Part shown: one piece after another, positions 19,466 through 64,000 of the stretch
Layout of the letters: each line of letters opens with the position of its first letter
Numbering within the stretch: position 1 is the first letter of the stretch
Made by a program: the position numbers and the translations under genes
The notes under the pieces: model-generated
Seen by the model: only the letters and a program-made list of their open reading frames with translations
Told to the model about the DNA's origin: nothing
The model's database searches: none
Origin: Octopus sinensis
Taxonomy: Eukaryota
Direction: 5' to 3'
NCBI RefSeq assembly: GCF_006345805.1
Contig: NC_043008.1
Span: 12,524,001 to 12,588,000, forward strand
Length of the DNA stretch: 64,000 nucleotides

Positions 19466-19937
19466 GGCATACAGCATAGTGGTTAAGAGTGTGGGCTACT
19501 AACCTTAAGATTCCGAGTTCAATTCCAAGTGGTGACCTGAATAATAATCATGATAATAATAATAATAATAATAATAATAATAATAACAATATTAATAATA
19601 ATAATTATTATAATAATAATAATAATAATCATAATGATAATAATAATCATAATGATAATAATAATAATAATCATAATAATAATAATAATAATCATAATGA
19701 TAATAATAATCATAATGATAATAATAATAATAATCATAATAATAATAATAATAATAATAACATCGAAAAATACCTTAGGAATGAGAACCCGGTTCGAAAT
19801 TTCCCCAAGAACACCTGATGAAGGCTGGAGGGTATATCAGCTGAAACGTTGTGTTGACAACAAACAAGATGAGGATAAATATCTGTCAAATGTAAATAAA
19901 GTAAATAATGTAAATAATGTAAATAATGTAAATAATG
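19466..19937 (+). mobile_element. tRNA-headed, hammerhead-bearing non-autonomous element (family H), monomer
   Basis: TAGTGGTTAAGAG (A box) and GAGTTCAATTCC (B box) at 19466-19540; (AAT)n at 19541-19760; HHR at 19810-19855; (AATAATGTA)n tail. Confidence 0.75.
19810..19855 (+). ncRNA. Minimal type-I hammerhead ribozyme motif
   Basis: AACAC-CTGATGA-A-GGCTG(gagggtatat)CAGCT-GAAA-CG-TT-GTGTT: stem I, core, stem II, palindromic ACGT stem III, GUU site. Confidence 0.65.
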
Positions 19938-19984
19938 ACTTTCCCACTGTGTTATATATAAACTTATTGTCTATACTTTCTGAT

Positions 19985-20455
19985 TTTTATCGTGTTCTTT
20001 ACTGGTTTTAGTCATTAGGTTGTGGCCATGCAGGAGCACCACTCTGAAGATCTTTTAGTTAAATGATTCAGCCTCAGTACTTTACTTTTTTTTTATAAGT
20101 CTGGTGCTTATTTTGTCAGTGTCTTTTTGCCAAGCTACTAAGTTACAGAGATGTAGACACACCAACATCAGTTGTCAAGCAGTAAGGGGAACAAACACAG
20201 ACACACATACACACACACACACATACATACTTAGATAATACATACATATATACACTCATCCATACATGTGTGTCTGATAGGCTTCTTCCAGTTTCTGGCT
20301 ACCAGATCCATTCACAATGCTTTGCTTGGCCTGAGGTTATAATAGAAGATACCTGCCCAAGGTGTCATGCAGTGGGACTGAACCAAGAACCATGTGACTG
20401 AGAAACAAGCTTTTTACTACACAGCCACACCTGTACCTGTATCACCTGTGCCTAT
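19985..20455 (-). mobile_element. Family-A SINE
   Basis: Colinear with 849-1227. Confidence 0.8.
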
Positions 20456-21705
20456 GTAGCAATACCTACACTTAACCATTATTAATTTTTTACTTAATTA
20501 CTCTAACTTTATGTACGCATCTCAGTAAAAATCTCTGTATTCAAAGAAGCCCATCAGATGCAGCGTTTCATCCCTACATTGTTTCTACCCTTTTTATAAT
20601 TATTTTTCACCTTTGACCTGATACTCTTACCTGTGTCAGTAATGAAATTTTGTCATCACTTTCCTGTATATATTTTTATTAAGCAATTTCTTTTTCCTAA
20701 ATCTTGTCTTTTCTCTCTGTCATTTCGCCAGCTTTCATTTCTTAATTTTCCCTAATTTATTCATTACCTATTCATTAGTTTATTGTTTCATTAATTTGCA
20801 CAAATATAATTGGAATTTTTACATTTTTATTTTTCAATAATTTCCTATATTTTTGTCTACCAATAATCTTTTTTTTGTTGCCCAGACATCCTTCTAACTT
20901 CAATAATCTCTCTCTCTCTCTTCCTATACCTTTCTTCCATCTCCCACCCCTACCCTCAACTAAGCCATTATCAAACTATTAATTATTTCCTTTATTATCT
21001 ACTTAATTAATATACTTACAAATTTTAGCACAAAACCAGCAATTTTCGTGACAGCAGTGTGCGTGGGTGGGGCAGTCGATTCATGTCAACACTTCCCCTT
21101 CCCCAGCATTCAACTTAATCCTACTTTATTGACCCTGCCAAATGGATGCGTACATGAAAGGCAAAACCGAGCAAGGTGGAATTTGAACTCAGAACATGAA
21201 GTGTTAGAAGAAATACTGCTAAACATTTTGCGCAATATTCTATCCCAAAGCATTAATAATTCTGTCAGCTAGCTACCTTAAACTATTTATCACAATAATT
21301 CTTTCCCAGATTTGTTTTCTGTCATAATCAATTCTTATGTATATATATATATATATATATATATATTATATATATATATAAGAAATTAAAAAAGGAAAAT
21401 ACACACACTTACATGGTTATAATATAATTTTTAATATATCGACTGGTTTCACAATCGCTATTCATGATATAATGTTTAATTTATATGAATATATAGTTTT
21501 TCTTAAATTATATTATAACCATGTAAGTGTGCGTATTTTCCTTTTTTAATTTCTTATATACATTACAATCCACTACGTGGGGACAACCGAAATTCATCTT
21601 TTCTGTTACTACTACTATATATATATATATATATATATATATATATATATTCTTTTATTCTTTTACTTGCTTCAGTCATTTGACTGCGGCCATGCTGGAG
21701 CACTG

Positions 21706-21862
21706 CAAAAGAGTCAGCAGAAGTTCGCCATTACCTTCTGCCGGAGCCACATGGAGCTTAGGTGTTTCGCTCATAAACACACACATTGCCCGGTCTGAGA
21801 TTCGAACCTGCGATCCCTCGACTGCGAGTCCGCTGCTCTAACCACTAGGCCATATGCCTCCA
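21706..21862 (-). mobile_element. Family-C SINE 5' half, fused to a family-A tail (21650-21705)
   Basis: GAGATTCGAACCTGCGATCCCTCGACTGCGAGTCCGCTGCTCTAACCACTAGGCC. Confidence 0.8.
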
Positions 21863-60462: not shown

Positions 60463-62165
60463 ATATATAAACATATAAAAATTTTACAAGACTTTCCAAA
60501 ATTGTTATTATATTTCCTTTAAACCATTGAGTTGTCTTCGTTGTAATCTCAATAAAAGTATATTAAATTCATTCTTGTGTACAAACACACTCGCATACAA
60601 ACACACATGGCCTTTTCCTTTTCGCTTAATCTTTCTGTCAGCAGAGAGGTGACTGTAACCATTGCCAGCACAGAAACCCAGTTGGACAGTTGCAAGTTGT
60701 TGGCTGCAGGAAAAAAAATATATGTCAGGGGGAGATAACTCTAAAGGGTTGATGTGCTGTAGGAATATGTGTTGAGGAATGACAAGACATTTGTGGTATG
60801 GAATGAGACAATTCACTGCAGTTCATTGAGTGGTGCCAATTTGGCACAGGTTGAGTATTCAGACTGATATGGCAACAGTACTTTATAGTATTGGAGACAA
60901 ACACGTACATACATACACACATATGCACACATAAGCACAAACACACAAATGTACACACACACATAGACACATACTCACACACATAGACACATACTCACAC
61001 ACATAGACACATACTCACACACAGCACATGTCATACACATACACATGTGCATGCAAGGAGATATATACACATGCAGATAGTGAGAGAAAGAGAGAGAAAG
61101 AGAAAAAAGAGAGAGATATAACATATTTATAAACATAACTAGATACTTACACAGAGAGAGAGACTAACAAAGAGAGAGATGGAGGCAGAGAGGTGGAGAG
61201 AGAGAGAAAAGGAATCAGAGAGAGAGAGAAGGAGGCAAAGAGAGAAGGAGGCAGAGAGGAGGGGGCAGAGTGTGACATTACACATAGAAACATAAGTAGA
61301 TGCTCACACACATTAGCAAAGTGAGACAGAGGAAGAAAGAGAGAGACAGACTGACAGAGTGTTGGATGGGGAGAGAGACTTTACAGATACAAATATAACT
61401 AGATGCTGGCACACATTAGCAAAGTAAGACAGAGGTAGGGAAAGATAGAGGGAGGCAGAGAGAGAGAGAGAGAGAGAGAGAGAGAGAGAAGGAATGTGGG
61501 AAAGAAAGCAAGAGACTGAGAGAGAGAGAGAGGGAGAGAGCAGGAGAAGAAGGTGAGAGAGGAGAAAATAGAAATATTACAACATCCAATGTCAAGTAAG
61601 TCATCATTGAATCAGTGATACCAAATAGACAGCATCGAAACAGCTGTCGTCCGCATGGTGGTAACTAGAGATTGAAACATAATTGAGTGATGAGAGGAGA
61701 GATGAGTGAATCAGTAATAAATGAGTGAGACCATCCAGTCTCAGTGGGGGTGGGCAAAGGTGATTGTAGTGAAAGAAAATAAAATGGTACTCTTTTATAC
61801 ACTCACACACACACACACTAATACAGACATGCATGCATGCACTTACACATATACACATGTATATACACATACAATGGGCTTCTGGAGGGTTTCCATCTAC
61901 CAGCTTCATGCACAAAGTATTGGTCAGCCAGGGGCTATAGTGTGAAGGCAGTTGCCCCTAAGGTGCCACAGAGTGGGATTAAACCCAAAATCACATGGTT
62001 GCAAAGTGAGCTTCTTAACCACACAACCCTTATATCAGTTTTGACAATATATCTGATGTTGGTGACAAATGCTACATTCATCATAGACTGTTATAACAAT
62101 GATCATAAAACTCATATCTTTTTTATCACTGCTTTAGACGCAGTTACAGACTACAATACAACTTA

Positions 62166-62690
62166 TAGGTGTAGGAGTGGTTGTGTGGTAAGTAGCTTGC
62201 TTACCAACCACATGGTTCCGGGTTCAGTCCTACTGCGTGGTACCTTGGTCAAGTGTCTTCTACTATAGCCTCGGGCCAACCAATGCCTTGCGAATGGATT
62301 TAATTGATGGAAACTGAAAGAATCACGTAGCATATATGTATATGTATGTATGTATATATATATATATATATATATACATATATATAAGTATGTATGTATT
62401 CCAACCCATGCTAGCATGGAAAACGGACGCTAAACGATGATGATGATGATGATGATGATGATGTATGTGTGTATATGTTTGTGTGTCTGCGTTTGTACCC
62501 CCAACATTGCTTGACAAACGATGCTGGTGTGTTTACGTCCCCATACATTAGCAGTTCAGCCAAAGAGACCGATCGAATAAGTACTAGGCTTACAAAGAAT
62601 AAGTCCTGGGGTCGATTTGCTCGACTAAAGGCGGTGCTCCAGCATGGCCACAGTCGAATGACTGAAACGAGTAAAAGAGTAAAAAAAAGT
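62166..62690 (+). mobile_element. Family-A SINE with a nested family-D tail (62400-62463)
   Basis: TCCAACCCATGCTAGCATGGAAAACGGACGCTAAACG(ATG)n lies inside the SINE's internal microsatellite. Confidence 0.85.
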
Positions 62691-63476
62691 GAGAGTTATA
62701 AAGTCTGGTACATCCCCTGTTCTCCATTTCTTTTTGCTTTTCCCCTATCCTTTGTCTTTCTATGCGTACAATTTCTGTTTCCAGATGATATAAATATGAA
62801 GAAAAATGAACGTTTTTTACATTACCTTTTTGTATTGTAATCATATCTTCAGGTGTAACTTAGAAACACACACAGACACACACATACAGACGACAATATT
62901 CGATTAGCTCCTTCCTCGGGGGATCAAGTTACAGATCTGTTTTGTCTTAAAGCTATGATCTAATCACTGTTAGTCTACGCCTCTGTTCAGCATGTTTATT
63001 TCAAATGGCCAAAATATTTCCGCCAAGAGATGCAAATCATCATTATCCTTGTCACATTATTGAAGAATTCAGACTTCTGCTTCACGTTTTTTTGCAATAT
63101 CCCTAGCAATAACATCTGTTAATTCTTCACAGGCCACCCATACGCTGTAATTAATCTAACAACATTAATCTTTTTTTTTTCCTGTCAAAACACGAAGAAC
63201 ACATTATGTCTCACACCACCAATAATGCATCAATTTTCTTATATAATTTCCATGAAATTCAATAAGAGAATTACAAGGAAGAAGTTGTATTCTAACTGTT
63301 AGAGTTGTCATTGTATATAACAAGTCTGCAACAGTACATACACACTTCAGCATCTGACCTGAGTGCTCGTGGAAGCTACAATGTTTTCTGATATAGAGAA
63401 TGTATATATATTTACGATGTATACATGAATGTTTGTAATATTATATCATGATTAGTTCAAAACACATCTTAGCAAT

Positions 63477-64000
63477 ACAGTTCTATATTTAAAAGATGAG
63501 GAATTATTTAGATTATTTACATTATTTACATTTGACGGATATTTGTCCTCATCTTCTTTGTTGTTAACACAACGTTTCGACTGATATACCCTACAGCCTT
63601 CATCAGGTGTCCTGGGGAAATTTCGAACCTGGGTTCTCATTCCTAAGGTATTTTTCAATGTTGTTGTCTTTATTATTATATTATTATTATTATTATTATT
63701 ATTATTATTATTATTATTATTATATTATTATTATTATTCAGGTCACTGCCTGGTATTGAACTTGGAATCTTGGGATTAGTAGCCCACACTCTTAACCACT
63801 ACGGCATATGCCCATGCACATATAGCTACTAACCCCAAGATTTTGAGTACGATTCCAGGCAGTGGAATCATAATAATAATAATAATAATAATAATAATAA
63901 TAATAATAATAATAGTAATAATAATAACATCGAAAAATACTTTAGGAATGAGAACCCAGGTTTAAAATTTCCCCAAGACACCTGATGAAGCTGAAACCTT
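63477..64000. mobile_element. Family H head-to-head inverted dimer, running to the window end
   Basis: Minus arm 63477-63814; axis ATATGCCCATGCACATAT at 63806-63823; partly deleted plus arm. Confidence 0.8.
63566..63611 (-). ncRNA. Minimal type-I hammerhead ribozyme motif
   Basis: Reverse complement: GACAC-CTGATGA-A-GGCTG(tagggtatat)CAGTC-GAAA-CG-TT-GTGTT. Confidence 0.65.

Follow-up and report, generated by a model that had tools for sequence, protein, structure and literature searches.

Short retroelement-like repeats with minimal hammerhead-type motifs in the Octopus sinensis genome and their possible dependence on Penelope-like elements

Hammerhead-type motifs in the window

We investigated a 64-kb stretch of the 2.72-Gb Octopus sinensis assembly (contig NC_043008.1, positions 12,524,001 to 12,588,000, forward strand; hereafter the window), which is AT-rich and carries many (TA)n, (TG)n and (AAT)n tracts together with short interspersed repeats. 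Between window positions 19466 and 64000, the part covered by the inventory, lie ten motifs that match or resemble the hammerhead ribozyme; four have a canonical core, and six were added by a search based on the repeat families. The repeats that carry them fall into three unrelated lineages, A (five copies), B (one B1 copy and three B2-like copies) and C (one motif), and not into more because the B1 and B2-like copies are homologous. An initial annotation of the same DNA had counted about a dozen motifs, which was close, from five to seven unrelated families, which was too many. It had also placed the motifs mostly in (TA)n or (AAT)n, and indeed nine of the ten lie in or beside such a tract. 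The features are as follows (window coordinates, strand, description).

19466..19538, plus: head of a family A copy; box-A/box-B-like words by eye; 84% identity over 76 nt (blastn) to the head of genomic locus L004
19539..19757, plus: internal (AAT)n tract of the same copy, read from the sequence; the layout is repeated in genomic copies
19758..19938, plus: hammerhead module of the same copy, short 3' variant; descriptor match; 93% identity to the module of locus L003
19810-19855, plus: hammerhead of this first A copy, core from 19815; canonical; predicted cut after 19850
27200..27475, minus: full family A copy, with module 27200-27345, (ATT)n 27346-27410 and head 27411-27475
27252-27299, minus: hammerhead-like motif of that copy, core 27293; degenerate core CTATTGA
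27476..27643, plus: family A module with truncated 5' end; directly adjoins the head of copy 27200..27475 (minus), with which it forms a head-to-head pair
27505-27550, plus: hammerhead of that module, core 27510; canonical; predicted cut after 27545
63477..63812, minus: full family A copy, with module 63477-63660, (ATT)n and head 63737-63812
63566-63611, minus: hammerhead of that copy, core 63606; canonical
63825..64000, plus: partner family A copy, head-to-head, with 5'-truncated head 63825-63864, (AAT)n and module from 63928
63982 (core), plus: hammerhead remnant of the partner copy; most of helix II deleted; the copy runs off the window end
41982..42173, plus: family B1 copy, 5'-truncated, embedded in (TG/TA)n
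42033-42067, plus: B1 hammerhead, core 42037; gttt CTGACGA-A gag..ctc GAAA CGTC, then aaac; predicted cut 42063
60065..60236, minus: B2-like copy, 3' end on (TA)n; core CTGTTGA (A6 to U) from 60183, then GAAACGTA
59853..60012, minus: second B2-like copy; core CTGTAGA from 59972; second box decayed to AAAACATA
52985..53175, plus: third B2-like copy, (TA)n-flanked; core CTGTGGA from 53056; second box GAAATGTT, CpG of ACGT lost
37636..37690, plus: motif C, core 37645; CTGATGA, helix II hairpin and GAAAC, without a pairing U16.1 or palindrome

The palindromic stem III that the initial annotation had described as shared is so only in part. The palindrome ACGU at helix III is intact in six of the ten motifs (four A copies, B1 and the copy at 60183); the two remaining B2-like copies have ATGT and ACAT in its place, which may be read as CpG decay, and it is absent from motif C and from the cut copy at 63982. 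The proposed arrangement as outward-facing inverted dimers or tandems was borne out by two inverted A pairs (27293 minus with 27510 plus, and 63606 minus with 63982 plus) and by one same-strand B2-like pair (60183 and 59972, both minus) with (TA)n between its members.

Both strands of the window were scanned with a strict descriptor of the minimal type-I hammerhead, in which CTGANGA could carry one additional base, helices I and II had to be no shorter than 4 and 3 bp, respectively, and GAAA, a U-H cut site and a helix III of palindromic or hairpin form were required. Four sites matched, whereas 200 dinucleotide shuffles averaged 0.075 matches and never exceeded 2. With 0, 1 or 2 mismatches in the core, 4, 2 and 10 motifs were observed against means of 0.01, 0.91 and 11.94 (238 shuffles), and the bare word CTGANGA was not enriched (30 in the window against 23.4 +/- 4.7). 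Enrichment is thus confined to canonical cores, and motifs with one or two mismatches occur at background level. Since the signal comes from canonical cores only, degenerate motifs were accepted only inside copies of the same repeat families, and relaxed-core scanning, which contributes background only, was dropped as a source for the inventory. The comparison with shuffled sequence suggested by the initial annotation therefore spoke for its canonical cores and not for its relaxed ones.

Genome-wide counts were checked against reversed-pattern or other control patterns. The pattern CTGANGA-N8-26-GAAACGT had 22,232 matches compared with 1,359 in its reversed control, and genome pattern counts were 16-26 times those of reversed-pattern controls. 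At the level of the genome, the picture of a community of hammerhead-marked, microsatellite-associated elements was thus right. The window itself contains 237 open reading frames (ORFs) of at least 70 aa, 162 of them left after removal of low-complexity frames; among the 97 that were scanned, no exon was recognised and no reverse transcriptase, endonuclease or other Pfam domain scored over the cut-off. The initial annotation's suggestion that intronic copies could cleave or fold host pre-mRNA is conjectural.

Families A, B and C across the genome

Family A elements join a ~75-nt head, through an (AAT)n tract, to a hammerhead module of ~190 nt. At least 2,776 first-look candidates were found in the genome, with 91-96% identity to the window copy, and a flank-anchored pattern had 5,624 exact matches against none in its control. 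We read 11 further genomic copies with their flanks, and in all of them (AAT)n precedes the module. Upstream of (AAT)n stands the head in five copies, a 3' remnant of the head in two, the 3' end of an ORF-bearing element in three and another repeat in one. An inverted arm lies upstream in four of these copies (L003, L004, L005 and L009), as at two loci of the window. The arms keep the 3' end of the module and have lost their 5' part at varied positions, some in the head, some at the hammerhead and some past it; this shows that head, (AAT)n and module form one element ending at the end of the module, and that family A insertions are often head-to-head pairs. A hand tally of the first 100 listed copies gave nine opposite-strand pairs 135-834 nt apart, all in the order minus then plus, and no same-strand pair within 1 kb. 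Family A is therefore not tandem, and the term "retrozyme-like" used in the initial annotation does not fit it. The alternative that the module is an element in its own right, read from the opposite strand and tailed by (ATT)n, was rejected, since it would make the arms of L003 and L009 3'-truncated.

The hammerhead of the first A copy (19810-19855) has a helix I of 5 bp (AACAC/GTGTT), CTGATGA followed by an unpaired A, a helix II of 5 bp (GGCTG/CAGCT) and GAAA-CGTT. The module hammerhead includes GAAACGUU, and the hairpin of helix III is absent. Across A copies helix II varies from 4 to 6 bp, and its closing pair is mostly G-C, with G-U in the copy at 19815. CUGANGA and GAAA boxes in type-I order were found in three of the five window copies, and a canonical core in 84 of the first 100 listed genomic copies (56 CTGATGA, 27 CTGAAGA and 1 CTGACGA); at the level of sub-lineages the core differs only at the free position N7. 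The long and the short 3' variant of the module are set apart by a tail of ~35-45 nt. As for the head, ARAGORN called no tRNA gene and the Rfam tRNA model did not match at E<=10 in the two copies submitted, the box-A/B-like words being recognised by eye only.

Family B1 is represented by at least 2,495 first-look candidates with 94-97% identity, and its core pattern had 11,223 exact genome matches against none in the control. All 12 B1 copies that were read have a constant 3' sequence followed by (TA)n, with variable 5' starts, a combination that marks target-primed reverse transcription. With the 5'-truncated arms of family A and ends without terminal inverted repeats by eye, it bears out the initial view that the motifs mark non-autonomous retroelements.

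The B1 hammerhead has a helix I of 4 bp, a helix II of 3 bp, an extra A and GAAA-CG-UC. Around core position 4, the first 100 listed matches comprised 60 CCG, 38 CTG and 2 CCA by hand tally, so that the canonical core occurs in 38 of them as well as in the window copy. The ratio of 38 CTG to 2 CCA is unlike CpG decay, and B1 thus comprises two sub-lineages, one canonical and one with C4. An earlier suggestion that the B1 core is uniformly CCGACGA, based on all 11 of the copies most like that of the window, was rejected in view of the 38 CTG. The genome also holds relatives of B in which the same helix II goes with a CTGAAGA or a CTGATGA core. The three B2-like window copies are homologous to B1 and have U at position 6; two have lost the palindrome, and the copy at 60183 reads GAAA-CG-UA. 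Same-strand B pairs were seen once in the window and twice among the first 100 listed genomic copies.

Motif C is low-copy. Three genomic loci share ~55 nt (window 37636-37690, L059 at ~1530-1590 and, in reverse, L060 at ~1520-1580), consisting of CTGATGA, a GATCA/TGATC hairpin and GAAAC between flanks that are unrelated across the three. Because it lacks a pairing U16.1 it was counted as hammerhead-like only, and it may be an old relic or a conserved motif.

Three other repeats of the window were recorded in passing. An abundant SINE-like family (SINE, short interspersed nuclear element) is present at 3057-3468, 16165-16340, 31491-32034, 34521-34636, 44657-45062, 46409-46584 and 57998-58173; the stretch 31491-32034 is a triple with a 184-nt period, and some copies have GAAACGTT in the head. 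It has no CUGANGA box or hammerhead fold and may have passed as hammerhead-like by eye. A recurrent repeat end of the form ..GCATGGCC.CAGTC.AATGACTGAAAC.AGTAAAAGA occurs at 880, 22755 and 28717 on the minus strand and at 3998, 56581 and 62664 on the plus strand; it contains CTGAAAC and no hammerhead. At 58424-58764 lies a nearly perfect inverted repeat, whose 156-nt arms are 92% complementary and separated by 29 nt; it resembles a miniature inverted-repeat transposable element (MITE) or a foldback element.

Penelope-like elements and the mode of copying

The genome is rich in Penelope-like elements (PLEs). A GIY-YIG profile returned at least 5,030 first-look candidates, and of 150 that were scored 147 matched, all of them over the Pfam cut-off. 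Some have open frames of 762-883 aa, among which a frame of 781 aa recurs, and the copies that were read sit in (TA)n with direct terminal repeats (616 nt at 95% identity in L075). In the 3' region of the ~781-aa PLEs, past the GIY-YIG match, the sense strand has a hammerhead-like motif built on the core TTGATAA with GAAA-CATG-T. This motif departs from the canonical core by C3 to U and G8 to A. C3 and G8 pair in the active hammerhead fold, and U3/A8 may thus be a natural pair-swap variant of the core. TTGATAA also occurs in a second element resident in (TA)n, whose helices I and II are quite different. Taken together, the motif was noted at L068 (2362), L076 (oriented; 1369 and, on the minus strand, 2306) and L084 (1205), and its pattern had 2,279 matches genome-wide against 87 in the reversed control. 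Opposite-strand pairs of the PLE motif within 1 kb were in the order minus then plus in seven of eight cases among the first 100 listed (hand tally).

Sequences of A, B1, B2 and C were compared by blastn with 27 PLE locus records from 26 places, a small sample of the at least 5,030 candidates. Only free-standing B2-like copies matched beside PLEs: in L072 and L090 they face the 3' end of a PLE tail-to-tail, with a (TA)n tract common to both, and in L071 one lies upstream of the PLE. This adjacency may reflect only a common preference for (TA)n. A B1-like stretch in L069 (79% over 221 nt) is a separate insertion in (TA)n.

Two further hammerhead-bearing arrangements were met outside the window. 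The first, at L073:7521 on the plus strand, is a type-I hammerhead of canonical sequence (CTGATGA..GAAAC-TCGA-GTC), with a helix III of 2 bp and TCGA as its palindromic loop. It is situated upstream of a PLE frame of 775 aa, at a distance of ~950 nt and on the opposite strand. In the second, units of ~555-560 bp are repeated in tandem at C1:257511-258667, 399015-400169 and 4791457-4792605, each unit having CTGATGA or CTGAAGA..GAAACGT and a long helix II; this ~557-bp family looks retrozyme-like.

From these observations we infer, with somewhat better than even confidence, that the window holds three lineages of short retroelements with minimal hammerhead-type motifs, which were most likely copied in trans by PLEs. 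A PLE reverse transcriptase with its GIY-YIG endonuclease would prime reverse transcription of the RNAs of these elements at nicked microsatellite DNA, and such priming would give rise both to the inverted pairs and to the association with microsatellites. The palindromic ACGU could pair two hammerheads into an active double hammerhead, which would trim read-through or multimeric transcripts to unit length. The dependence on PLEs that the initial annotation had proposed agrees with the architecture of the motifs, the habit of forming inverted pairs, the link with microsatellites and the abundance of PLEs; the part of it that failed to appear is a matching terminal repeat in the 27 PLE loci.

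Several results weigh against copying by PLEs or against a working hammerhead. The same blastn comparison found no similarity to A, B1 or C in the 27 PLE records, so that no autonomous master with a matching terminal repeat is known, and three of the 11 genomic A modules are directly preceded by an ORF-bearing element that is LINE-like (LINE, long interspersed nuclear element). Non-canonical cores are frequent, with C at position 4 in the 60 B1 copies mentioned above and a canonical core in none of the three B2-like window copies. No Rfam hammerhead model matched 191-nt slices around the family A and B1 motifs at E<=10; for the window as a whole there were no Rfam matches at the gathering score, and at E<=10 no hammerhead was among the 150 listed of 259 matches, the top rows being microsatellite look-alikes of microRNA models. 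Presumably this is due to the helix III hairpin in the hammerhead models. Monomer folds of six motifs were no better than those of shuffled sequences (z between -0.37 and -1.48), and family A in its minimum-energy fold has core bases paired with CGUU. A co-fold of two A motifs with RNAcofold was dropped, as the nested model cannot draw a double hammerhead.

RNA sequencing (RNA-seq) reads from three raw runs of one study, whose source organism is possibly a relative, are to be added to these points. On the A module 2,586-3,336 reads were found, mostly with 90-95% likeness, and they were equal in both mate orientations. No pile-up of read ends was seen at the predicted cut 19850/19851 in the three runs, nor was any other position reported at which many molecules start or stop, although the library type and a 1-in-5 reporting threshold could hide weak cleavage; depth was continuous across this position (887/870, then 947/960 in run X21). 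The CpG of the ACGT palindrome was changed in ~10-29% of reads at each of two places. In each run 164-206 reads pass from 19846 into a form of A without the ~20 nt after GTGTTAA, a junction that represents a deletion sub-lineage and not a cut site. Self-cleavage of the A and B motifs is predicted from the motif. Given the success of the C4 form in B1, the U6 form in B2-like copies and the U3/A8 form in PLEs, cleavage may be weak or dispensable, and we consider that catalysis is probably one or the other.

This leads to the alternative that survives best, which we regard as possible though doubtful: that the motifs are non-catalytic relics or purely structural, and that the elements spread without self-cleavage, whoever copies them. 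It would explain why non-canonical cores are so abundant (C4 in B1, U6 in the B2-like copies, and U3/A8 at the 2,279 sites given above) and why the RNA-seq reads have no read-end signature. It also fits the low in vitro activity of minimal hammerheads, even as dimers, given in PMC4209133, and the proliferation of PLE clades without canonical hammerheads described in PMC8557442. Against it, sub-lineages of family A differ only at the free N7, the B relatives CTGAAGA, CTGATGA and CTGACGA likewise differ only at N7, and the 38:2 ratio of CTG to CCA in B1 is unlike plain CpG decay. Furthermore, U3/A8 exchanges both partners of the C3-G8 pair and is found with two sets of helices I and II that are unrelated to each other.

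It is unlikely, in our view, though for family A a rival to be taken seriously, that A and perhaps B are ordinary SINEs copied by an (AAT)n- or (TA)n-tailed LINE, with the hammerhead as a passenger from an older element. The genome does contain a young LINE-like family (L007/L025 and L028-L057; at least 1,188 first-look candidates with 95-98% identity), whose relatives measure ~1,200 aa with RVT_1 at ~525-796, a weak zf-RVT and no GIY-YIG domain, and whose 3' end consists of A-rich sequence, GT and then (AAT)n. The A head followed by (AAT)n resembles a SINE with its tail, and in the three copies with a LINE-like neighbour the module comes directly after the (AAT)n of the LINE. Another repeat directly follows (AAT)n at 6 of 29 readable LINE 3' ends (L033, L035, L042, L051, L053 and L057), and one lies upstream of the A module in L002; (AAT)n is thus a common site for landing or for tails in this genome. 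The repeat downstream of the LINE tails itself ends in (AAT)n; since such repeats both start at and end in (AAT)n, (AAT)n-tailed elements stack in each other's tails. On the other hand, the A module follows only 2 of the 29 LINE 3' ends and is absent from 27 (one LINE family was compared), and hence is not the tail of the LINE. The 3' end of the composite A element lacks (AAT)n, and nine of nine close pairs are head-to-head with the same 3' end in both arms, unlike the products of LINE twin priming.

Finally, that the families are MITEs or derive from other DNA transposons, or that the motifs match by chance within AT-rich repeats, is already largely refuted and very improbable: TA-rich sequence is a target of many DNA transposons and relaxed-core matches are at background, but A and B1 ends have no terminal inverted repeats (judged by eye), a constant 3' end goes with 5' truncation, the canonical class is far above shuffles and genome pattern counts exceed reversed controls 16-26-fold.

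If these elements are mobilised by PLEs, the PLE system includes tens of thousands of copies to which standard annotation would give the label SINE or unknown, and this would change how the repeat content and microsatellite dynamics of this genome are read. Tentatively, and as a joint claim that we would not yet bet on, family A may represent a new kind of SINE, with a pol-III-type head, (AAT)n and a Penelope-type hammerhead tail, copied by PLEs and not by LINEs. The same claim includes a natural experiment on the core, in which U3/A8 (2,279 copies of the PLE motif) and U4C (thousands of B1 copies) would either still cut or indicate that cutting is dispensable for PLE-type spread. The U4C, U6 and U3/A8 sub-lineages are natural variants for testing whether cleavage matters in PLE-type retrotransposition, a role that published work has left open.

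Comparison with known systems

In kind, the phenomenon is already described: huge numbers of minimal hammerheads around PLEs were reported in 2014 (Cervera and de la Pena, PMC4209133). Our additions are modest and concern the particular families, the composite of head, (AAT)n and hammerhead, and the abundant core variants; no description of a Penelope-linked, tRNA-derived hammerhead SINE, or of an octopus hammerhead SINE, was found in the literature. According to PMC4209133, minimal hammerheads in PLE pseudo-LTRs (LTR, long terminal repeat) have a short helix I (4-5 bp), a base between 9 and 10.1, a G10.1-C11.1 pair, no helix III and a palindrome at 15.2-16.2, and occur at huge copy numbers, with paired motifs that lie on opposite strands at distances of 100-700 bp. 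Every one of these sequence features is present in family A and in canonical B1. The difference lies in the host sequence, which there is the pseudo-LTR, whereas here it is a short element without an ORF, in family A with a box-A/B-like head and internal (AAT)n.

Animal non-LTR retrozymes carry tandem hammerhead repeats that give rise to circular RNAs, and have been proposed to be non-autonomous PLE derivatives (bioRxiv 10.64898/2026.07.22.740005). Like them, the families described here are non-autonomous, hammerhead-bearing and found in a genome that holds PLEs. In contrast to the tandem retrozymes, family A copies are dispersed or in inverted pairs and never tandem among the first 100 listed, and only B has some same-strand pairs; the separate ~557-bp tandem family of this genome matches the retrozyme class better.

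The hammerheads of the schistosome elements Sm-alpha and Sj-alpha are active. As described in PMC6765202, these are short SINE-like elements in which a promoter-type head is followed by the hammerhead, as in family A, but their hammerheads are canonical with a helix III. Family A lacks helix III, and dimers would therefore be needed.

PLE insertions typically have an inverted 5'-truncated upstream copy, and one of their ends has a tail of 30-40 bp; they favour microsatellites, among them (TA)n, a bias seen in Naiad and also discussed for Neptune (Craig et al. 2021, PMC8557442). Naiads lack canonical hammerheads according to that paper, whereas the PLEs sampled here have a C-terminal GIY-YIG domain and the hammerhead-like motif with the TTGATAA core. 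The window families share with these microsatellite-targeting PLEs the association with (TA)n, the inverted 5'-truncated partners and possibly the tail at one end, as the ~35-45-nt difference between the long and short A modules may be its equivalent. Inverted 5'-truncated partners together with a microsatellite bias thus give the insertions described here the anatomy of PLE insertions.

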